A DNA stretch of 64,000 nucleotides from an uncultured Chloroflexia bacterium (GCA_963711035.1 CAVQCN010000001.1:1025942-1089941); one strand, 5' to 3'; counted from the first letter of the stretch, positions 8,375 through 57,100 are shown. Numbers and translations: made by a program. Notes: generated by a model from the sequence alone, not told the origin.

Positions 8375-8413
8375 ACCTCACCCCCTACCCCCTCTCCGAT
8401 TTCGGAGAGGGGG
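8375..8413. repeat. Left terminal inverted repeat with 11-12-bp G/C hairpin (8388-8413)
   Basis: ccccctctccg / cggagaggggg perfect stem with ATTT loop, preceded by acctcaccccc. Confidence 0.7.
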
Positions 8414-8823: not shown

Positions 8824-8860
8824 CCCCTCTCCGATTTCGGAGAGGGGCTGGGGGTGAGGT
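8824..8860. repeat. Right terminal inverted repeat (10-bp hairpin 8824-8847 plus gggggtgaggt)
   Basis: Inverted copy of the left repeat; t8860 is shared with the cinA TGA stop (8860-8862, minus strand). Confidence 0.7.
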
Positions 8861-20390: not shown

Positions 20391-20591
20391 CTGCGAGCTT
20401 TCAGCGGCGAGATAGTTCGTCGTCATTGCGAGGAGCGCCAGCGACGTGGCAATCTCGGTCGGTCGGGCCGTCCTCGGACGTGGCCGTGTCAGGATTGCAG
20501 CGTCTCTACCGTGATGGAAGCAGCCCCCGCAGCCCCAGATTGCCGCGCCTTGCTGCCGCAATGGCTTGCAATGACAACGCGGAGCCGACGG

Positions 20592-24365: not shown

Positions 24366-25934
24366 ATGAATCCAGCCGAGTTTCTCACCATTAGCAGTGC
24401 GGTCCTGCCCGACCGTGAAGCGCTCGTCTCCGGCGACGGCAGCAAGCGCATCACGTACGCAGAGATGGCCTCCCGTGTGACGCGGCTGGCCAACGCCCTC
24501 GTCGGAATGGGCGTGGAGCAGGGCACCCGCGTGGCGCTGATGTCGACGAACTCCCCCGAGTGCGTCGAGGTCTATTACGCGACGGCCAAGCTGGGCGGCT
24601 GCTTCGTGCCGATCAACTACCGCGCCAAGCGCGAAGAGCTCTCGTACATGCTCAACGCGTCGGGCGCCACCGTCTTGTTCATCGAGAGCCGTTACCTGGA
24701 GCTGCTCGCGTCCGTGCGCGCCGAGCTCGAGACTTTGCGCGAGGTCGTCGTACTCGACCGCGAGGTCGAAGCTATGCCGACCTACGATGCGCTGCTGGCC
24801 GGCGCCGGGGAAGACGAGCTCTTCATAGACGTCGACCTGAGCCAGCCGACGGCGCTGATCTTCACTTCGGGTACGACGGCACTGCCCAAGGGCGTCGAGC
24901 TCACGTTCATGAATCTGGCGCTGTACGTGCTGAACACGATGAGCCCGGCCGACCCGACTACGCCGCCCGAGAAGACGCTCGTCTCGGTGACCGTGGCGCA
25001 CGTGGCCGGTCTCACTGCGATCCTGTCCTCGATCTGGGGCGGTCGCACGCTCGTGACGCTGTCGCAGTTCGACCCGGAAGGCTGGCTGCTCGCCGTGCAG
25101 CGCGAGGGCGTGACCCACAGCTTCGTGGTTCCGACGATGCTGAAGCGCATTATGGACAGCCCGGTCTTCGACCGCCATGACCTCAGCTCCCTGCAGCTCA
25201 TCACCTACGGCGCCGCGCCGATGCCGTTCGACGTCGTCTGTCGCGCCATTGAGGTATTCAGCTGCGGCCTGATGAATGCTTACGGCCAGACCGAAAGCAC
25301 GTCGTCTCTTACCTACCTGGGGCCGGAAGACCATCGTATGGACGGCTCTGAGGAGGAGAACGCGCTCAAGTTCCACCGCCTGCGCTCCGTCGGCCGGCCC
25401 ATGGACGACGTCGAGATCGCAATCATGGACCCGAAGGGCCGGCCGCTGTCCCGGGGCGAAGAGGGCGAGATCTGCGTCAAGAGCGCGCGGGTCATGAAGG
25501 AGTATCTCAACCAGGTCGAGGCCACGTCTGAAGCCGTGCAGGACGGCTGGCTGCACACCGGCGACCAGGGTTACCTTGACGAAGAGAACTATTTGTTCAT
25601 TACGGGCCGCGTGAAGGACCTGATCATCCGCGGCGGCGAGAACATTTCCCCCGGCGAAATCGAGTCCATTCTCGAGGGCCATCCCGAGATCGACGAGGCA
25701 GCCGTCATCGGCGTGCCGGATTCAGAGTGGGGCGAGGCGGTGAAGGCAATCGTGGTGCCGGTGCCGGGCGCTGAGGCCACGGTGGACGACATCCGCAGCT
25801 ACTGCCGCGAGCACCTCTCCAGCTACAAGACGCCGGCTTACGTCGCCTTCCTGGATGAGCTGCCGCGCAACCCGATGGGCAAGGTGCTCAAAACGGATCT
25901 GCGCCGCGAGCACGGCGGCGCCGACAACAACTGA
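24366..25934 (+). CDS. AMP-dependent acyl-CoA synthetase (fatty-acid--CoA ligase)
   Basis: 522 aa; AMP-binding motifs LIFTSGTTALPKGV, YGQTE, GWLHTGD, ...PRNPMGKVLK. Confidence 0.9.
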   Translation: MNPAEFLTISSAVLPDREALVSGDGSKRITYAEMASRVTRLANALVGMGVEQGTRVALMSTNSPECVEVYYATAKLGGCFVPINYRAKREELSYMLNASGATVLFIESRYLELLASVRAELETLREVVVLDREVEAMPTYDALLAGAGEDELFIDVDLSQPTALIFTSGTTALPKGVELTFMNLALYVLNTMSPADPTTPPEKTLVSVTVAHVAGLTAILSSIWGGRTLVTLSQFDPEGWLLAVQREGVTHSFVVPTMLKRIMDSPVFDRHDLSSLQLITYGAAPMPFDVVCRAIEVFSCGLMNAYGQTESTSSLTYLGPEDHRMDGSEEENALKFHRLRSVGRPMDDVEIAIMDPKGRPLSRGEEGEICVKSARVMKEYLNQVEATSEAVQDGWLHTGDQGYLDEENYLFITGRVKDLIIRGGENISPGEIESILEGHPEIDEAAVIGVPDSEWGEAVKAIVVPVPGAEATVDDIRSYCREHLSSYKTPAYVAFLDELPRNPMGKVLKTDLRREHGGADNN

Positions 25935-25974: not shown

Positions 25975-26445
25975 TGGCCGACTTCGCTGAGGGCCAGACC
26001 CTTCGCTCCGCTCAGAGTGACAACGCAGCAGGTGTGTCATGCTGAGCGCCCGCGAAGCATCTCCCGGTGCCCCACGCCTCGACGTTCCGTGCATCCGCAC
26101 GGCCAGGACCACGTGTCGTCTTACGGATGGCGCAGCGTCCTGACGCTGGCCCGGGAGGCCTGCCCGCGCCTGGCGGTATCGGGGTTCGCCCCGACCGCAG
26201 CCGGGAGACCCTTCGCTCCACTCAGGGTGACAACGCAGCAGGCGTCATGCTGAGCGCCCGCGAAGCATCTCCCGGTAACCCAGCGCGGCGTCGTTTCAAA
26301 GCATACGCACGGCCAAGACCACGCGCCGCAATACAGCTGCCCCTGCGTCCTTACGGTGGCCCGCCGACCTGCCCGCCGGTTTCGGGGTTCGTACCGCCCG
26401 CGACGGGGAGACCCTTCGCTCCGCTCAGGGTGACAGCATTGCCGT
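25975..26445. repeat. Tandem array (about 2.3 copies of a ~210-bp unit), each unit containing a REP-like hairpin motif
   Basis: agacccttcgctcc(g/a)ctcag(a/g)gtgacaacgcagcagg...gtcatgctgagcgcccgcgaagcatctcccggt at 25996-26068 and 26206-26276, partial third copy at 26409-26440; flanking acgcacggccaagaccacg...cgtccttacgg...ctgcccgc...tcggggttcg also repeated. Confidence 0.6.
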
Positions 26446-26457
26446 AACGTACGAGAG

Positions 26458-27186
26458 CTATGTTTCGTCCTCTGTGTAGGGCGGTAGAGGCTCCAGCGGC
26501 GCCGCACCGTGGGTGGAGAAGCGGGCCCAGAGAGCCGCGGCGAGGGCATCGCTGGCCCTGCGATAGCCGGGGCAGTCGAAACGCAGGCGCGAGTCGTCGA
26601 AATCGACGTCGAAGTAGCTGCACTGGTGCGGATCTGCAGACTGTTCGTTCAGAAAGGGCCGGAAATGGCGGCAGCTGACGCACATGGCCGTCTCTGAGAC
26701 CTGATGGCCCATCTCAAGGCCCCGCACGAGCTTCATCAGGGCCCTCAGCAGCACTGTCTGCTCCGTCTCTGAGAGCGCTTCGGCGGCGCCGGTCAGGGCG
26801 CTGGATCCTTGAGATAGCCCTTCGGCGCGTTTTTCGCCCTCGCTCGTCAGGCGTATGGCCACGGCGCGGCCGTCGTCAGGCGCTGCCGTGCGCCTCAGAA
26901 GCCGTTTTTCGACCAGAGAAGAGACGGAATCGCTGGCTGAGGCGGGTGTGACGCCCAGACGCGCGGCTACCGCCGCCAACCGCATGCCTTCAGGCACACC
27001 GCGCAGGGTCGAGAGGATGGCCGCCTGCGTCGGTGTGAGGCGCTGATCGGCGCTGAGATGGCGAATTCCGCTGCGAAGCGCTCGTGAGATTGCTTCCTCT
27101 GCGATGCTCAGATGGCGACCAAAGTGAATTCGCCTGTCGTTTTCATCATACATAGCTAGGAATCCTAACGAGTTCTCAGCATACAA
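26458..27186 (-). CDS. MarR-family transcriptional regulator with Cys-rich C-terminal extension
   Basis: wHTH core ...LTPTQAAILSTLRGVPEGMRLAAVAARLGVTPASASDSVSSLVEKRLLRR...; C-terminal ~70 aa carry CVSCRHF...C...C. Confidence 0.8.
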   Translation of the reverse strand: MYAENSLGFLAMYDENDRRIHFGRHLSIAEEAISRALRSGIRHLSADQRLTPTQAAILSTLRGVPEGMRLAAVAARLGVTPASASDSVSSLVEKRLLRRTAAPDDGRAVAIRLTSEGEKRAEGLSQGSSALTGAAEALSETEQTVLLRALMKLVRGLEMGHQVSETAMCVSCRHFRPFLNEQSADPHQCSYFDVDFDDSRLRFDCPGYRRASDALAAALWARFSTHGAAPLEPLPPYTEDET

Positions 27187-37188: not shown

Positions 37189-38419
37189 TCAGGCCAGCTC
37201 GGCCGGCTCTGCTTTCTCCAGCTCGAACGCCTTGTGCAGGGCGCGCACCGCGTCGGCGACCTTGTCCTCGCTGATGATGCAGGTGATGCGGATCTCGCTG
37301 GTCGAGATCATCTCGATGTTGATGCCCGCGTCGTAGAGCGTGCGGAACATGCGCGAGGCAAAGCCGGGGGCGCTCTGAATGCCGGTACCGACGATGCTCA
37401 CCTTGCCGATGCGATCGTCGGACGCCACGCCGGCGGCGTTGAGCTGCCCTGCCACGCGTTCGACGATGGGCATGGCGCGCTCGAGGTCGCCCTTGGAGAC
37501 GGTGAACGTGAGGTCGGCCAGCCCTTCGGCGGAAGCGTTCTGGACGATCACGTCGACCGAGAGGTGCGCTTCGGCCATCGGCTCGAACACGGACGCGGCG
37601 ATGCCGGGCCGGTCGGGCACACCGCGCAGAGTGATCTTCGCGACGTCCATGTCGTGGGCGATGCCGCGCACGCGGTTGAACTGCTCCATAGCGATGCCTC
37701 CGTGGATCAGGGTGCCGGGCGCCTCCGTGAAGCTCGAGGCGACGTAAATCGGGACGTTGTACACGGCCGCGATCTCGACCGACCGCGACTGCATAATCTT
37801 CGAGCCCTTGCTGGCCAGCTCGAGCATCTCCTCGTAGGTAATCTCGGGCAGCTTGCGGGCGTCCGGCTCCACGCGGGGGTCGGCGGTGTACACGCCGTCC
37901 ACGTCGGTAAAGCGCTCGCAGCGGGCGCCGAGCACCGCGGCCATGGCGACGGCGGTCAGGTCGGAAGCGCCGCGGCCCAGGGTGGTGACGTCGAGGTCTT
38001 CGGTGATGCCCTGGAAGCCCGCGATGATGACGACGCGCCCGGCGGCGAGCTCGCGGCTCACGCGGTCGGGCTCGATGCCGAGGATGCGGGCGCGGCTGTG
38101 CACGGAGTCGGTGCGCAGGCCGGCCTGGGCGCCGGTCAGGCTAGATGGCGTCGACGCCCATGTTGTGCAACGCCATCGCCATCAGCGTGCTGGAGACGAT
38201 CTCGCCCGTAGAGAGGAGGACGTCCATCTCGCGGTCGGTGGGGTTCTGGTTGATCTGGTGCGCCAGCTCGATCAGCTCGTCGGTCGTGTCGCCCATGGCG
38301 GAGACGACGGCGACGACGTCGTTGCCCTCGGCCTTGCGGCGGGCGATGCGCTGCGCGACGGCGCGGATGCGGTCGGCGTTGGCGACGGAGGAGCCGCCGT
38401 ATTTCTGGACGATGAGCAT
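37189..38419 (-). CDS. lysC: Aspartate kinase, interrupted: N-terminal 92 codons (38141..38419) and C-terminal 304 codons (37189..38103) in different frames
   Basis: [52 protein letters not shown]...HNMGVDAI* then, in another frame, [28 protein letters not shown]...VIIAGFQG...two ACT domains. Confidence 0.85.
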
Positions 38420-38502: not shown

Positions 38503-38523
38503 CCCTCTCCCTCAGGGAGAGGG
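38503..38523. repeat. Solo copy of the cassette-type G/C hairpin (ccctctccc-tca-gggagaggg followed by cgagggtgagc)
   Basis: Same arm sequence as the hairpins flanking the DUF559 cassette, with a different loop and similar trailing gggtgag. Confidence 0.4.
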
Positions 38524-38588
38524 CGAGGGTGAGCGGTCGTAACGCTACGTTTCTGTGTCGGGCGCCGGATGCAGGTCGGAGCGCGTGT

Positions 38589-38632
38589 CCGGGGGAGATT
38601 CTTCGCTGCGCTCAGAATGACAACGCTGCGGG
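38589..38632. repeat. Inverted copy of the REP-like motif (ccgggggagattcttcgctgcgctcagaatgacaacgctgcgg)
   Basis: Reverse complement matches gtcattctgagc...gcgaagaatctcccgg, seen at 51814-51847 and in the 25996/26206 units. Confidence 0.4.
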
Positions 38633-38642
38633 GTCCGGAGCC

Positions 38643-39101
38643 TCAGGCGCGGACGACGACGGTGCCGGCGGCCATGTCGCCGATGCGCTGGTTCTTGGAA
38701 GACGCGGCCGCAACGATGACGCCGAGCAGGTAGAGGAACGGCAGGCCGTCGATGATACGAAGGATGGTGCGGATGGCGACCTTCTGGCCGGTGAGGGTGC
38801 CGTCGACGGCGGTGACGCGGATGTTCATCACCTTCTTGCCGATCGTCTGGCCGGTCTGCGACTCGAGGACGAAGTAATAGCCCATCACGATCACGAAGAA
38901 GATCAGCGATCCCAGGGTGCCGAGTGAGGCGTTGAAGCTGGAGCCGTTGCCCGAGCTGGACGAGCCGAAGTCGCCAAACAACACGGCCAGGATTACGAAG
39001 ACCACGGCAAGGATGACGACATCGATGATCGCGGCGACGATCCGCGGACCCATGACGTTCTCTGTGGTGGTTACCTGTTCTGGTTGGGTCGCTTCATTCA
39101 T
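38643..39101 (-). CDS. RDD-family membrane protein
   Basis: 152 aa, three TM helices, conserved R...D...D (RIVAAIIDVVILAVVFV...LRIIDGLPF). Confidence 0.8.
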   Translation of the reverse strand: MNEATQPEQVTTTENVMGPRIVAAIIDVVILAVVFVILAVLFGDFGSSSSGNGSSFNASLGTLGSLIFFVIVMGYYFVLESQTGQTIGKKVMNIRVTAVDGTLTGQKVAIRTILRIIDGLPFLYLLGVIVAAASSKNQRIGDMAAGTVVVRA

Positions 39102-40059: not shown

Positions 40060-40237
40060 GACGGGCCTAGTGTACGCGAGGCGCTGGTTACGCCCGAGGC
40101 AACGGGTCTAGAATTTGTGTCGCAGATACGCGTGCGTTTAGCTGCTGCTCCGTTGAACGATCACCCGTGACGCTTCGGGTGTTGCACGCTGTGTGGCAGG
40201 TTGGGCGGGATGCTAATCCCTCGAGAGGAAGAGAGAC

Positions 40238-40702
40238 GTGGCTCAGATCAACATCGGCGACCAGGCGCCCGACTTCGAGACGGTCAACGACCAGGACGAA
40301 CCGGTCAAGCTCAGCGACTTTCGCGGCAAGCGCGTGGTGCTCTATTTCTACCCCAAGGACGACACGACCGGCTGCACGGCGCAGGCCTGCGGCTTCCGCG
40401 ACCACTACGCCGAGATCGAGGCCAAGGACGCGGTTGTGCTCGGTGTCAGTCCAGACGGCGTGAAGTCGCACCAGCGCTTCAAGGCCAAGCACGACCTGCC
40501 GTTCCCGCTGCTCGTGGACAGCGATCACACGATCGCGGAGGCGTACGGCGTCTGGCAGGAGAAGTCGATGTACGGCCGCAAATACATGGGCATCGTGCGC
40601 AGCCACTTCGTAATCGACGAGCAAGGTAAGGTCGTCGACGTGAAGTACAAGGTGAGCCCGGCCGACAGCGTTAGCAAGTCGATTGCGACGCTGACAGGCT
40701 GA
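40238..40702 (+). CDS. bcp: Thioredoxin-dependent peroxiredoxin Bcp
   Basis: 154 aa ...DFRGKRVVLYFYPKDDTTGCTAQACGFRD... Confidence 0.9.
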   Translation: MAQINIGDQAPDFETVNDQDEPVKLSDFRGKRVVLYFYPKDDTTGCTAQACGFRDHYAEIEAKDAVVLGVSPDGVKSHQRFKAKHDLPFPLLVDSDHTIAEAYGVWQEKSMYGRKYMGIVRSHFVIDEQGKVVDVKYKVSPADSVSKSIATLTG

Positions 40703-40783
40703 TGATTGGCAGTTACAACCCCGCTGCACTGTCTTACAATTGGTAAGCGAATGGTTTGTAAAGGCTAGAGAAGGGACGAAGAC

Positions 40784-41245
40784 ATGGCAGAGATCAAAGT
40801 CGGCGACCAGGCCCCGGACTTCGAGACGACGAGCGACAAGGGCGACAAGATCAAGCTGAGCGACTACCGCGGCAAGCGGGTCGTGCTCTACTTCTACCCC
40901 AAGGACGACACCCCCGGCTGCACGATTCAGGCCTGCGGCTTCCGCGACGTCTATACGGACGTCGAAAGCAAGAACGCCGTCGTGCTCGGCGTTAGCCCGG
41001 ACGGCGTCGACTCGCATATTGCCTTCCGCGACAAGTTCGGACTGCCCTTCCCGCTGCTGACGGACGAGGACAAGTCAATCTCGCAGACCTACGGCGTCTG
41101 GCAGGAGCGCGAGCGGGACGGCAACAAGTTCATGGGCGTTGCCCGCAGTCACTTCGTCATCGACGAGCAGGGCAAGGTCGTCGACGTGCAGTACAACGTG
41201 GCGCCCGCAGACAGCATCACGCTGTCGATGAAGACGCTGGCGTAA
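40784..41245 (+). CDS. bcp: Thioredoxin-dependent peroxiredoxin Bcp (tandem paralog)
   Basis: 153 aa ...DYRGKRVVLYFYPKDDTPGCTIQACGFRD...; highly similar to the upstream bcp. Confidence 0.9.
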   Translation: MAEIKVGDQAPDFETTSDKGDKIKLSDYRGKRVVLYFYPKDDTPGCTIQACGFRDVYTDVESKNAVVLGVSPDGVDSHIAFRDKFGLPFPLLTDEDKSISQTYGVWQERERDGNKFMGVARSHFVIDEQGKVVDVQYNVAPADSITLSMKTLA

Positions 41246-46466: not shown

Positions 46467-46633
46467 TGTAGACCGATTGTCATTGCGAGCCATGGCGGCG
46501 GCAGCGCGGCGTGGCGATCGGGGGTGGGGCGGAACCTTCATCCTGGCTGAGAAACGTTGGGGCTGAGAACACCGAAAGGGCCGGAGCGCTTAGCGCTCCG
46601 GCCCTCGGTGTCTTTCCCGGGATGGGCTGTCGT

Positions 46634-50383: not shown

Positions 50384-51793
50384 ATGCGCGGAAAGGCGCT
50401 GGCTATGATGAATAACGATATGACTGCAGATGAAAGCCGTGAATTTGTCCTGCAGCAATGCCGCCAGCAGGACGTCAAGTTCATTCGGCTCTGGTTCACA
50501 GACACGCTCGGCTCCCTGAAGAGCTTTGCGATTACCTTTGAGGAGCTCGAAGGAGCGCTGGAGGAGGGCGTGGGCTTCGATGGCGGCGCCATCGAAGGTT
50601 TTGCCCGCGCCGGCGAGAGCGACATGAACGCCATCCCGGACGCGGCGACCTTTCAGCTGCTGCCGTGGCGCCCGCGCGAGCGGCGGGTGGCGCGCATGTT
50701 CTGCGACATCCATCTGCCGGACGGCTCGCCCTTCCCGGGCGACCCGCGCTACGTCCTCAAGCGCAGCCTGCAGCGCGCCGCGGCGCTAGGCTTCACGTTC
50801 TACGTCGGCCCGGAAGTGGAGTACTTCTACTTCCGGGAAGGCGACAGCAGCAGGCCGGAGCCGCTCGACCACGGCGGCTACTTCGACCTGACTCCCCTCG
50901 ACGCGGCCAGCGATCTGCGGCGCGAGACCGTGCTCACGCTGGAGGAGATGGGCATCGGCGTCGAGTCCAGCCACCACGAGGTGGCGCCGTCGCAGCACGA
51001 GGTCGACCTGCGCTATACGGACGCGCTGACGATGGCGGACAACCTGATGACGACACGTCTCGTCGTCAAGGAAGTGGCGATGGCCGCCGGCGTCTACGCG
51101 ACCTTCATGCCCAAGCCGCTCGCCAACGAGAACGGCTCCGGCATGCATTGCCACATGTCCCTGTTCCGCGGTGAGCAGAACGCCTTCTTTGACGAGAACG
51201 ACCCGTTGCACCTCTCGGCCGTAGCGCGCGGCTTCCTGGCCGGCCTGCTGCGGCACTCGCGGGAGATCACCCTGATCACGAACCAGTGGGTGAACTCCTA
51301 CAAGCGCCTCATCCCCGGCTTCGAGGCGCCGGTGCGCGTCGCCTGGAACCGCCGCGGCGCGACCGTGGCGCCGCCTCTGGTGGGCCCGAAGGAGCAGCCC
51401 GGCGGCCGCATGCCCGGCGATCTGCTGCGCGTGCCCGACTACCGGCCGGGTCGCGAGACTGCATCTCGCGTCGAGTACCGGGCGCCGGACGCGGCCTGCA
51501 ACCCGTACCTCGCGTTCGCCGCGATGCTGGCGGCCGGTCTCGAGGGTATCGAGAAAGAGTATCCGCTGCCACCGCCGCGTGACGTCCGCGACGAGGGTCA
51601 GATGGAGGACGCGCCGACCCTGCCCGGCAGCCTCTACGAGGCGCTGCTGGAGACGGAAAACAGCGTCCTGGTGCGGGAGTGTATGGGCGAGCACGTCTTC
51701 GAGAGCCTGATGGCCTCGAAGCGCATCGAATGGGAGAGCTACCGCTCGCACATTACCGACTTCGAACTGGGCCGCTACCTGCCGATCCTGTGA
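50384..51793 (+). CDS. glnA: Glutamine synthetase (GlnA family, type I-like)
   Basis: 469-aa track ORF; FIRLWFTDTLGSLKSFAI...GFDGGAIEGFA; true start is probably an internal Met (MNNDM...). Confidence 0.9.
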   Translation: MRGKALAMMNNDMTADESREFVLQQCRQQDVKFIRLWFTDTLGSLKSFAITFEELEGALEEGVGFDGGAIEGFARAGESDMNAIPDAATFQLLPWRPRERRVARMFCDIHLPDGSPFPGDPRYVLKRSLQRAAALGFTFYVGPEVEYFYFREGDSSRPEPLDHGGYFDLTPLDAASDLRRETVLTLEEMGIGVESSHHEVAPSQHEVDLRYTDALTMADNLMTTRLVVKEVAMAAGVYATFMPKPLANENGSGMHCHMSLFRGEQNAFFDENDPLHLSAVARGFLAGLLRHSREITLITNQWVNSYKRLIPGFEAPVRVAWNRRGATVAPPLVGPKEQPGGRMPGDLLRVPDYRPGRETASRVEYRAPDAACNPYLAFAAMLAAGLEGIEKEYPLPPPRDVRDEGQMEDAPTLPGSLYEALLETENSVLVRECMGEHVFESLMASKRIEWESYRSHITDFELGRYLPIL

Positions 51794-51813
51794 GCAAAGC
51801 CGGGGGCTCCACC

Positions 51814-51847
51814 TGTCATTCTGAGCCGCAGGCGAAGAATCTCCCGG
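51814..51847. repeat. REP-like motif copy (tgtcattctgagccgcaggcgaagaatctcccgg), 20 nt downstream of the glnA stop
   Basis: Same family as 38589-38632 (inverted) and the 25996/26206 units. Confidence 0.4.
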
Positions 51848-51967
51848 CATTCCGACGCGGCGTGGGCGACGCGCCCGACGCGGCACAGACGATCTGGCGC
51901 GGCCATGCGAAGGGTGGCCCGCTAGATCGCCCGCGCGGGTGCCGTCGTCGGCTCGCAGAGGGGCTTG

Positions 51968-52003
51968 CCGGGAGATGCTTCACCGCGTTCAACATGACAG
52001 CGT
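51968..52003. repeat. Inverted partial REP-like copy (ccgggagatgcttcaccgcgttcaacatgacagcg)
   Basis: The reverse complement aligns with gtcatg(c/t)tga(g/a)cgc...gaagcatctcccgg; together with the 51814 copy it forms an inverted pair ~120 nt apart. Confidence 0.35.
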
Positions 52004-52577
52004 GTCTGGGTGCTTCACCCCATCGTTGAGCACCGGTGGGCGTGCGGTCAGTCGAGGCGTCGGCCGCGGGCGTAGCGGGGACCTTAAGGTCGCCACGCGC
52101 GCCCCGTCGGGCACGACCCTGACCTCGGCGTTTTGGACGATGGCCTGTGGTTGGACGGGACGCGGCGGCAGCATGAAGGCTGCCGCTACAGATCAGGCAG
52201 CGCCGCGGCCGCTTCCTAAATGCGCGACGTAACGTAAACGCTAGGCGTAAGTTGCATGCTGCGGTGTCAGAGCTGCGTTGATCTGCGCGTTGGCGCGTGT
52301 ATAACGATGGGCAAGTTTGGCGCCAGCGCGTCTCTTCCCACACGTAGGAAACGTTAAAAATGCATAAATATAAGGGGTAACCCTCACGCTGCACGTTGAC
52401 GGCCCTGATATACTCCGTCGTGGCTGTTGGCTAAAGCAGCCGGCCGCAAAGCGGCCCCTTTCTCCTGCGCGCTTACGGGGAGGTGGCGGGCGCGACCGAC
52501 AAGGGACAGTCGGGCGTGTCTCCCAGGCGCCAAGACCGGCTCGGTCGGGTGATCGGCCGGATCACACCCTCGCGGAG

Positions 52578-53866
52578 GTGCAGAACATGCTCAAATCGTC
52601 CTGGAAGTTATTGCCTATAGCGGCGGCGTTCGCATTGGGCATCGCGGTCGTTGGCGCCCGGGGACGTCACGCACGCCTACGGCGTTCGTCGCGCTCGATT
52701 GCCAGCGCCATCGGCGTTCTCACGGTTGACATCGGTCGACGACAGCACAGGCAAGTCGGATCACTGGCGGCCGAGATGCGGTGATCTGACATCGACGCCT
52801 CGAGCCCAACGATGACAGCGGTACGCGAAACTTACACTGCACAATGGCTCAGGTGATGATTCAGAGCTCGATCGAGTCGGATCCAGGACGGCAATTCCGT
52901 TCGCTCGACACGCAGCGGTGCACGGCCAATACGACATCAGCCTCACAGTCTGCCTGACCCGTACGTCGGCTGCGATGTCGTTGACAGCTCGATTCAGCAA
53001 CTGAGCTGGTCGAGCCAGACGGCACTGTCCACCTCACCTGTCAAACGGACAACATCACGATCAAGAAGGACGCGCCCGACGACCCGAGCAAGGACTTCGA
53101 CTTCACGATCAGTGGCCCCGGTAGCGGCTGCGACGACAGCTTCACGCTGGCTGACGGCGACACCCAGTCCTACTCTTGTACGGCGAGTGATTCGACCTAC
53201 GTTGTGACGGAAGACGTTCCCACCGGCTGGTCACTTGACACGCTGACCTGCACGGACACTGGCAACGGCAGCTACGAGACGAATGTCGCCAATGGCAGCG
53301 TTTCCATTACGCTGCAGGACAACACCGACACGGTTTCCTGCACCTTCGTTGACAATCAGGTGACGGGCACCGCGACGCCGGGTACGGCCAACAGCGTTAC
53401 GCTGCAAGTCTCCACCACGACGCCGCCCTGCAACCTGCCCGTCGTCGTCATTGCGACGGTGAGGGACGCTAGTGGCGCCCTGGTCAGTGGCGCACCGGTC
53501 ACGTTCAGCGCGGCCAGCGGTGCGTTCACATCGAGCTCCGGCACCACTCAGGCTGGTGTCGTCTCCACCCTGTACACTGCGAGCGGCAATGGCGCCGCCG
53601 TGATTACGGCGACCTCCGGCTCCAAGAGCGGCACGGCGACGATCACGACGTCGAGCTGCGCAACGCCGGCCCCGACCGCAGTTGCCACGTCGACGCCGGT
53701 TCCGACCGTCTCGACCGGCAGCATCCAGCCGCCGAACACCGGTGACGCTGGTTTGAAGGACGCGGGCAGCGGCAGCTCGAGCCTGTACGGCATCATTGCT
53801 GCTATTGTGGCTATCATGTCGACTGCTGCGGCTGGCTCCATCGTGGTAGCGCGCCGCCGGTCCTAA
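52578..53866 (+). pseudogene. Cell-wall-anchored surface protein (sortase substrate) with PPNTGD sorting signal; N-terminal third disrupted by frameshifts, intact frame from 52985
   Basis: 52578 ORF encodes only a signal peptide (MQNMLKSSWKLLPIAAAFALGIAVVGA) before junk. The frame opening at 52985 has no start codon but reads a coherent repeated module (DFDFTISGPGSGCDDSFTLADGDTQSYSCTAS...VVTEDVPTGWSL...). It ends ...TGSIQPPNTGDAGLKDAGSGSSSLYGIIAAIVAIMSTAAAGSIVVARRRS*. Confidence 0.55.
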
Positions 53867-57008: not shown

Positions 57009-57100
57009 GGAGAGGTGGCAGAGTGGTTGAATGCGGCGGTCTCGAAAACCGTTATACGGGTTCTCTCGTATCCAGGGTTCGAATCCCTGCCTCTCCGCCA
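57009..57100 (+). tRNA. tRNA-Ser (anticodon CGA), type II with long variable arm, CCA encoded
   Basis: GGAGAGG acceptor 5' arm / CCTCTCC 3' arm + G + CCA; D-loop AGTGGTTGAA; anticodon loop CT-CGA-AA; variable stem-loop CGTTATACGGGTTCTCTCGTATC; T-arm CAGGGTTCGAATCCCTG. Confidence 0.9.

Follow-up and report, generated by a model that had tools for sequence, protein, structure and literature searches.

An array of small CGTC/TGTC-tagged hairpins between convergent genes of an uncultured Chloroflexia bacterium and its probable relation to Ssn-type GIY-YIG nucleases

A tandem array of small hairpins lies between two convergent genes, encoding an AMP-binding acyl-CoA synthetase and a MarR-family regulator, in a 64,000-nucleotide (nt) stretch of DNA from an uncultured Chloroflexia bacterium (GCA_963711035.1 CAVQCN010000001.1:1025942-1089941; hereafter 'the window'). 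The array occupies most of the 523-bp spacer between the two genes, and dnaE follows marR. Tandem Repeats Finder reported a period of 210 bp, 2.1 copies, 80% matches and a score of 540 (Table 1), while a repeat search placed the unit starts at 25996, 26206 and 26409 (spacing of 210 and then 203) and a relative at 38596. These are the starts given for a ~210-bp tandem unit in the initial annotation of the locus, and the convergence of the two Pfam-annotated genes is likewise as described there. The array is non-coding: the codon-phase GC range across 25.9-26.5 kb is 0.09-0.15, compared with >0.4 in most neighbouring genes (most of which have a GC of 0.87-0.90 at third and 0.41-0.45 at second codon positions), and the open reading frames (ORFs) overlapping the array are devoid of such periodicity, which speaks against the repeat being an unrecognized coding sequence. 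Neither an intrinsic terminator nor a sigma-70-like promoter was found in the spacer. The codon-position GC periodicity of marR is weak relative to that of its neighbours (0.67/0.52/0.71).

The element that the array shares with other loci is an oriented hairpin of 28 nt, not the 210-bp unit. Its layout is YGTC - A NNN T - GA - GC - loop - GC - GA - A N'N'N' T - CTC (hairpin-carrying sequence: TGTCATTCTGAGCGAAGCGAAGAATCTC), and one strand folds into a 5-bp stem, tandem G.A/A.G, two G-C pairs and a G..A loop, flanked by unpaired YGTC on the 5′ and CTC on the 3′ side. What had been taken for an imperfect palindrome (gctcag..gtgaca...tgtcat..ctgagc) is where two copies meet head to head, the true unit being the hairpin that folds on itself. 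A covariance model built from 62 diverse hairpin copies found eight copies in the window (H1-H8; 39-51 bits, E ≤ 4e-11), the next match scoring 13.5 bits. The eight lie exactly where the array and its related copies had been placed, and the three outside the array are real, but they occupy two loci rather than the three originally counted. The stems in the window differ yet are complementary (ATGCT/AGCAT, ACCCT/AGGGT, ACTCT/AGGGT, ATTCT/AGAAT and ATGTT/AGCAT), with both YGTC-A and the C after the stem being present in 8/8 copies.

Within the array, the hairpins follow each other in the order (-)H1, 14 nt, (+)H2, 133 nt, (-)H3, 4 nt, (+)H4, 128 nt, (-)H5, with gaps measured between the covariance-model matches. 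Short linkers of 12-14 nt, which is the distance between hairpin cores at the two head-to-head junctions, thereby alternate with long ones of ~130-145 nt. Alternatively, the array can be parsed into two adjacent TGTCA...TGACA units, U1 (198 bp) and U2 (193 bp), plus a solo end. U1 and U2 are ~79% identical, spacers included, and the linker ACGCAGCAGG is repeated, so that the origin of the array is tandem duplication rather than independent insertions. H7 and H8, placed tail to tail, form a third unit of the same architecture (U3; 51811-52002, 186 bp) around an unrelated spacer; when the spacers of the window units were compared with other loci, U1 and U2 were related to each other only. Two possible degenerate relatives (Table 1) are mutually similar GTCATTGC(G/A)AGCCAT... 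sequences, with 84% identity over 32 nt (46477-46508 in the second) on complementary strands.

Table 1. Positions of the array, its hairpins, the flanking genes and the repeats at other loci (designated by L numbers).
Feature	Sequence	Position	Strand	Remarks
Tandem array, 210-bp unit x 2.1-2.3	window	25996..26435		five hairpin copies in alternating orientation, BIME-like (bacterial interspersed mosaic element)
H1	window	25991..26025	-	41.7 bits, E 5.8e-12; stem ACTCT/AGGGT, loop GGA; solo right end of a truncated unit, 57 nt past the synthetase stop, antisense to synthetase
H2	window	26032..26067	+	42.6 bits; stem ATGCT/AGCAT, loop GCCC; head-to-head with H1 (14-nt gap); left end of U1
H3	window	26201..26235	-	44.3 bits; stem ACCCT/AGGGT, inner pair T.G; right end of U1
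H4	window	26240..26275	+	40.4 bits; core as in H2; left end of U2
H5	window	26404..26438	-	49.4 bits; right end of U2; core begins 23 nt past the marR stop codon, sense with marR
H6, solo	window	38591..38625	-	50.6 bits; stem ATTCT/AGAAT; upstream of lysC, between it and an RDD-family gene (38643-39101, -; Pfam); core begins 21 nt past the stop of the latter, sense
H7	window	51811..51847	+	41.5 bits; extra C-G pair, loop GCA; left end of U3; core begins 21 nt past the glnA stop (glnA ends at 51793), sense
H8	window	51968..52002	-	39.3 bits; stem ATGTT/AGCAT; inner pair G-C to A-T, a compensatory change; right end of U3
Possible degenerate long-loop relative	window	20532..20579	-	GTCATTGCAAGCC...GGCAATCTG; weak, 7.9 bits (noise level)
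Possible degenerate relative without 3′ stem	window	46478..46520	+	GTCATTGCGAGCC...GGCGATC; from sequence, undetected by the model
AMP-binding acyl-CoA synthetase	window	24366..25934	+	flanking gene outside the element; Pfam PF00501, PF13193
MarR-family regulator	window	26458..27186	-	flanking gene outside the element; Pfam PF12802
~190-bp element	L277	1437-1629		both orientations occur among the six elements
~190-bp element	L330	3608-3800		
~190-bp element	L335	6331-6524		
~190-bp element	L344	7267-7460		
~190-bp element	L354	2688-2877		
~190-bp element	L371	4330-4521		
TIRYT repeats	L244	2442-2473/3418-3449		
TIRYT repeats	L252	2449-2475		plus several tandem copies
TIRYT repeats	L253	2449-2476/3436-3463		
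TIRYT repeats	L254	2455-2483/3996-4024		

Comparison of copies from other genomes supports a selected structure. The pattern used to search public collections put no constraint on three stem positions per side, and the copies were de-duplicated. All three free positions were paired in 268 of the 279 copies from the viral and genome contigs listed (shuffle mean 153, maximum 168), with 259 copies being Watson-Crick and falling into 15 stem types; in an independent metagenome set the fully paired copies were 126 of 131 (shuffle mean 66, maximum 78). This pattern-based test is independent of the covariance model, to which an alignment of 129 distinct metagenome copies was fitted. There, 99.4% of the cells were paired, six of the seven pairs showed changes on both sides, and double-change cells numbered 96 versus 22 ± 3 in shuffles, none of 500 of which reached the observed value; sliding the partner column lowered pairing to 30-57%. 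At orthologous sites in phage genes, the stem is either ACCCT/AGGGT or ATGCT/AGCAT. The stem comprises nine positions, the first of which is an A-T pair in 128 of the 129 copies, while positions 6-7 are the invariant, non-Watson-Crick G.A/A.G; atop the latter, the loop is always G(N)nA of 3-5 nt, closed by C-G. At position -1, 80% of copies have T and 16% have C. Among 32 copies chosen by the model with no pattern, conservation is 97-100% at GTC and at the C after the stem, the C reaching 100%.

The hairpin is present in at least 120 IMG/VR contigs (GC 33-70%), at least 120 genome contigs and at least 120 metagenome contigs, and is rare among cultured phages and plasmids in the collections searched. 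The genome matches listed come from ~20 phyla, among them Chloroflexota (many), Acidobacteriota, Nitrospirota, Bacteroidota, Bacillota, Cyanobacteriota, Planctomycetota, Verrucomicrobiota, several classes of Pseudomonadota, Omnitrophota, Saccharibacteria, Gemmatimonadota and others. Solo elements of 28 nt are common, as are in-frame insertions of 27 nt. Carriers in culture include Pedobacter nototheniae (L215) and Silvibacterium bohemicum (L232). Close pairs are predominantly tail-to-tail, the ratio of tail-to-tail to head-to-head being 78:8 and 43:5 in two sets of copies. In addition, six contigs from marine and other metagenomes carry a ~190-bp element resembling a miniature inverted-repeat transposable element (MITE), homologous over its full length (73-85% identity) and found in both orientations between unrelated flanks, with exact TGTCA...TGACA ends at which the hairpin forms the terminal inverted repeat; no target-site duplication was found at these six elements.

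Tandem arrays occur elsewhere as well, the first two below being long and from unrelated taxa: seven same-orientation copies with a 105-bp period in a Bacteroidaceae metagenome-assembled genome (MAG; L132 3563-4219), five dimers with an 87-bp period (L058 8593-8969), and an array with a 247-bp period in a related Dehalococcoidia contig (L241), whose unit is a mosaic of the hairpin, a CCCTCTCCC...GGGAGAGGG palindrome and a GTAG-tagged repetitive extragenic palindrome (REP). Small palindromes of a second family (CCCCTCTCC-loop-GGAGAGGGG, in many cases with GGGTGAGGG after them) also lie in this mosaic (2390-2430 and repeats), beside the GTCA hairpin and the GTAG-tagged REP, as well as in the window at 8382-8412, 8824-8854 and 38503-38535; this family may be another cross-phylum element. 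In a family of ~400-aa phage structural genes, the hairpin sits in frame at a constant position (L036, L046, L047, L073, L108, L117 and L118) and encodes the peptide EETLRSAQGD or EMLRSAQHD, its stems differing compensatorily between orthologues, and one phage homologue holds an entire inverted dimer in frame (L010 11866-11990). Different small palindromes occupy one gene junction in related phages, and a comparison of filled and empty sites in related phages gave no clean empty site.

Judged from a 100%-identical synthetase protein on a 1.30-Mb contig and from named relatives, the window belongs to a Dehalococcoidia-like Chloroflexota assembly. Relatives differ in what lies between the synthetase gene and dnaE. 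At three loci (L241-L243) this segment holds different genes and neither the array nor marR (DUF5990 in one relative; a luciferase-like gene and a 111-aa ORF in two), and it looks variable or acquired. Location of the array in such a segment would fit the reported link of such repeats to variable regions and the idea that they mark recombination-prone ones, the comparison being one of three loci.

The search for associated genes pointed to GIY-YIG nucleases. In a phmmer search, GIY-YIG probes matched eight ORFs at loci with the hairpin. Six of these are complete COG2827-type genes, of which five have the hairpin on either side within ~100 nt (L105, L201 from Syntrophales, L227 from Chloroflexota and two in L266), and a truncated one has a hairpin pair just upstream (L187). 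Bracketing on both sides was thus seen for 5 of 7 GIY-YIG genes versus 21 of 2372 other called genes (odds ratio ~280, p = 2e-9). The proteins are of 91-97 aa with PF01541 only, and their Tyr5, Tyr16 and Glu63 align with Y6, Y17 and E64 of SsnA, the residues mutated in PMC11893778. When the protein was the starting point, all six GIY-YIG genes at viral loci (6/6) proved to be flanked by tagged hairpins, one of them by the hairpin type of the window, three by canonical NTS-type motifs matching the published regular expression and two by other GTCATTCC variants; the GIY-YIG genes at hairpin loci are 42-53% identical to the homologues flanked by canonical NTS-type motifs. Furthermore, close homologues of the Chloroflexota protein have strong adjacent copies in three of four independent assemblies, bracketing the gene on both sides in L384 and L381/L382 (a Dehalococcoidales MAG) and lying as two copies downstream of it in L394. 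Among the best 120 matches, close homologues (70-76% identity) come from Chloroflexia, Dehalococcoidales, Anaerolineae, Acidobacteria, Planctomycetota, Verrucomicrobiae, Deltaproteobacteria and Cyanobacteria, a taxonomic range that mirrors that of the hairpin. In a count of neighbouring genes within 1.5 kb of the copies, only structural genes of related phages clustered above the reporting cut-off, the GIY-YIG cluster falling below it.

SsnA is a 94-aa single-domain GIY-YIG protein that binds and cuts the Neisseria Transformation Sequence (NTS; 28-nt dRS3 form) as single-stranded DNA (ssDNA) only and is inactive on RNA; in other bacteria, the genes of Ssn homologues (cd10448-type) have Ssn-related motifs (SRMs) of their own alongside, and the system of N. 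meningitidis restricts transformation (Chenal et al. 2025, Nat Commun, PMC11893778). For SRMs, the published proportion of genomes with ssnA among those with more than 200 copies is 81%. The hairpin resembles these motifs in being an oriented element of 28 nt with an unpaired HGTC directly 5′ of a stem that starts with A-T/Y, a C directly after the stem and a G..A loop closed by G-C pairs, as well as in its hundreds of copies, its clusters around genes and its broad phylogenetic spread. In the published system, cleavage and binding depend on GTC and on the C that follows the stem (PMC11893778), and the flanking of ~94-aa single-domain GIY-YIG genes on both sides reproduces the NTS-ssnA-NTS architecture (Chenal 2025). 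It differs in its invariant tandem G.A/A.G (TGA-GC...GC-GAA), where the NTS is a perfect palindrome, in its CTC tail (CYRG/CCA in the published motifs), in occurring mainly as tail-to-tail dimers and ~190-bp units, and in its presence in Chloroflexota and many phyla unnamed in the text of PMC11893778.

The hairpin was also compared with the CGTC/TGTC-tagged REP superfamily, whose members, including Neisseria dRS3 and Rickettsia RPE, have A-T-first stems, short loops and a 3-nt tail, lie near ORF 3′ ends, include intragenic copies and have no dedicated transposase (Di Nocera 2013, PMC3733652). The hairpin shares the terminal CGTC/TGTC tag, the A-T first pair, the short loop and the unpaired 3-nt tail, and it likewise lies close to ORF 3′ ends, where the genes converge or run in one direction, with occasional in-frame intragenic copies and no dedicated transposase found. 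However, all four published families consist of perfect palindromes, such as GTC-ATTCCCGC-GAAA-GCGGGAAT-CCA, with fully complementary stems of 8-9 bp and loops of 4-5 nt, whereas the hairpin has the G.A core at positions 6-7 and loops of 3-5 nt; the former mostly have CCA tails and are mostly arranged as head-to-head dimers, the latter has a CTC tail and the tail-to-tail excess given above. None of the intragenic peptides published for these families matches those encoded by the hairpin, and CGTC repeats were unreported in Chloroflexi (PMC3733652).

We therefore consider the array to be, with good probability, a BIME-like cluster of CGTC/TGTC-tagged, Ssn-related hairpins that serve as ssDNA sites of a GIY-YIG nuclease encoded elsewhere in the genome. 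By analogy with the Neisseria NTS and SsnA, the copies would most likely be recognized and cleaved as ssDNA by a small single-domain GIY-YIG enzyme whose gene presumably lies outside the window. The family has spread, possibly aided by the nuclease, in the form of solo copies, of dimers placed tail to tail and of ~190-bp TGTCA...TGACA units that lack target duplications, and at the array locus one unit with its linker was then duplicated in tandem. Cleavage by an Ssn enzyme, the strand concerned, an ssn gene in the source genome and any biological role, such as one in mobility or recombination, are what we infer from the resemblance to the Neisseria system. As for novelty, the array gave nothing relevant in Rfam 15 at E ≤ 10, five foreign loci with canonical copies matched no family at E ≤ 1, and a literature search with the literal sequence returned only unrelated primers. 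We could not find an Ssn-linked hairpin class of this description in Rfam or the searchable literature: it is of a known kind, a REP/BIME-like cluster, and of a new sequence class.

Orientation with respect to genes was also examined, on crude ORF calls. H5, H6 and H7 begin 21-23 nt past the stop codons of marR, the RDD-family gene and glnA, respectively, all in sense. The placement of the hairpin just downstream of genes, suggested in the initial annotation together with its REP-like and intergenic character, is right in kind, and enrichment at gene ends holds elsewhere: in the first two collections (ORFs ≥100 aa), 111 copies are in sense versus 48 in antisense within 60 nt of ORF ends (p = 6e-7) and 34 versus 5 within 15 nt, and the bias also holds for solo copies taken alone (33:13, p = 0.0045), while gene 5′ ends show no orientation bias (56:56). 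In sense copies the folding strand is the non-template one, and its sequence is also that of the mRNA.

Several observations weigh against the proposed nuclease sites. The published SRM string, HGTCWYN(0-2)YYVSBRHN(0-5)WNVSBRGN(0-2)RNCYNB, which is an operational search string rather than a biochemical definition, matches the NTS but 0/4 tested copies and 0/8 window copies of the hairpin, because the TGA-GC core violates its YYVSBRH block; the hairpin is therefore a new sequence class and not an instance of the published motif, and censuses based on the string probably undercount Ssn-linked repeats, since it misses this class. There is no GIY-YIG ORF in the 64-kb window and the source contig is absent from the best 120 matches to the GIY-YIG homologues, so a cognate nuclease in the source genome is unproven. 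Among the linked genes, one viral locus (L376) is the same contig as L105 and hence non-independent, a Dehalococcoidales locus (L383) has only a weak variant of 14 bits, and one complete GIY-YIG gene (L195) is without good copies. Predicted energies of the hairpin are unremarkable (-2 to -9 kcal/mol) and not better than those of shuffles, and those of the whole array are not significant either, hence the structural evidence is comparative, not thermodynamic; a hairpin so weak yet so highly conserved suggests a recognition site rather than a physical barrier. A count of G.T versus A.C to identify the folding strand gave 23:15 (p = 0.26), which does not identify it. Finally, the sense bias after stops, which we regard as real, is not predicted by a pure ssDNA-site model; it is weaker in the smaller metagenome set (20:10; solo copies 7:6), and its strength is uncertain for that reason.

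If the proposed reading is right, the tandem G.A class predicts a new and very widespread specificity of Ssn cleavage, around the tandem G.A, among enzymes that are under development as site-specific ssDNA cutters. The finding also gives an identity to a repeat that annotation pipelines miss or render as spurious small ORFs in Chloroflexota, Acidobacteriota, many other little-studied phyla and the phages of these.

A bolder proposal, which we hold to be improbable at present, is that the hairpin and its GIY-YIG partner constitute a self-propagating mobile system based on ssDNA, with the nuclease acting like a transposase or a homing enzyme on an element of 28 nt and its ~190-bp derivatives. 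It would explain the precise TGTCA...TGACA ends without duplications, the in-frame 27-nt insertions in phage genes, the hot spots at gene junctions and the 70-76% protein identity across phyla, and would amount to GIY-YIG-driven DNA mobility distinct from HUH and DDE transposition.

Less probable again is that the hairpin is primarily a structured RNA element of 3′-untranslated regions (3′-UTRs), protein-binding or mRNA-stabilizing and selected in sense after the stops of bacterial and phage genes, its behaviour as a DNA repeat being secondary. The sense bias in all three counts, next to unbiased 5′ ends, and the three window copies just past stop codons are what such an element would produce; both the tandem G.A and the G..A loop make good RNA motifs, and as RNA the sense strand is ~1.4 kcal/mol stabler than the antisense. 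The REPs of E. coli have documented 3′-UTR effects. On the other hand, the hairpin has no Rfam family, its folds are weak (-4.6 to -9 kcal/mol, z-scores not significant), U-tracts are absent and no terminators were found, many copies are antisense, intragenic or in inverted dimers, and the bias is weak in the metagenome set. SsnA, moreover, is inactive on RNA (PMC11893778), and the gene linkage indicates a DNA nuclease. The RNA and the DNA-nuclease readings are compatible and do not exclude each other.

Very little speaks for a classical REP or REPIN (paired REPs in inverted orientation) mobilized in trans by a Y1 HUH transposase, either a REP-associated tyrosine transposase (RAYT) or one of the type associated with terminal inverted repeats (TIRYT), with the hairpins as ssDNA substrates. 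The build is REP-like: the element, like the palindromes of E. coli REP/BIME and Pseudomonas REPIN-RAYT, is short and extragenic, combines a hairpin with a conserved tetranucleotide on the 5′ side and three nt of tail, and forms inverted doublets and mosaic tandem clusters of alternating orientation, often with other motifs (compare L241 with its hairpin, CCCTCTCCC palindrome and GTAG REP), without target-site duplication. However, the tag is YGTC and not GTAG/GTGG, and the hairpin is conserved across phyla where classical REPs are largely species-specific (PMC6006769). With four Y1 probes, phmmer found no Y1 transposase in 1.96 Mb around copies, nor in the window, although the probe retrieves genuine PF01797 proteins; GIY-YIG, not Y1, is the gene family bracketed by the hairpin, whose partner thus appears, from sequence, to be an Ssn-type nuclease, unlike the RAYT of classical REPs. 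Some tails in the window (GGGGAGAC) resemble the published TIRYT motif GGGGWSAS and had prompted the RAYT/TIRYT reading, which four independent TIRYT loci largely refute: these are flanked by GGGGTCAGGCTT... repeats (Table 1) and hold no hairpin found by the model, so the resemblance is coincidental. The TIRYT genes themselves (Y1_Tnp plus Bac_DnaA_C, subclass 2.1) carry ~28-nt inverted repeats starting with GGGGTCAGGCTT, which confirms the published GGGGWSAS. The small dispersed repeats (SDRs) of cyanobacteria (Elhai et al. 2008) are also very small (21-27 nt) and inserted in genes and other repeats, but are reported in Nostocaceae only (PMC5861425), a distinction drawn from their published description.

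Nor is it at all likely that the element is a conventional MITE of a DDE-transposase insertion sequence, the hairpins being merely its terminal inverted repeats: the six full-length homologous units of ~190 bp and window units U1-U3, of the same size and ends, do look like one, yet target-site duplications are absent, each arm covaries internally and the stems often differ between the two arms of a unit, neither of which is required of inverted repeats, the element commonly occurs as solo copies of 28 nt and as in-frame insertions of 27 nt, and copies 0.5-4 kb apart have no transposase between them. An autonomous parent between such copies was likewise discarded, the bracketed ORFs being ordinary genes, and a hammerhead or other ribozyme, CRISPR, an intrinsic terminator and coding sequence were rejected on sequence, GC periodicity and the terminator scan. 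The Rfam scan and secondary-structure prediction proposed in the initial annotation were run, with no family and no significant energies, and with strong covariation.

Other features of the window were noted. lysC (aspartate kinase; 37189-38419, -), near H6, is split into two ORFs by a 1-nt frameshift, with the junction near 38105-38140 (...GVDAI* followed by SLTGAQAG... in the next frame), which represents either an assembly indel or a pseudogene. The ~1.4 kb 3′ of glnA (51794-53200), with U3 at its start, shows no codon-position GC periodicity, no Pfam-annotatable ORF and no Rfam match. A 300-nt direct repeat (40234-40533 and 40780-41079; 75% identical, 546 nt apart) probably reflects a duplicated domain or paralogous genes. 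The only Rfam 15 match in the window at the gathering threshold is an 89-nt tRNA at 57009-57097 (59.6 bits) with a long variable arm and CGA in the anticodon loop, probably tRNA-Ser.

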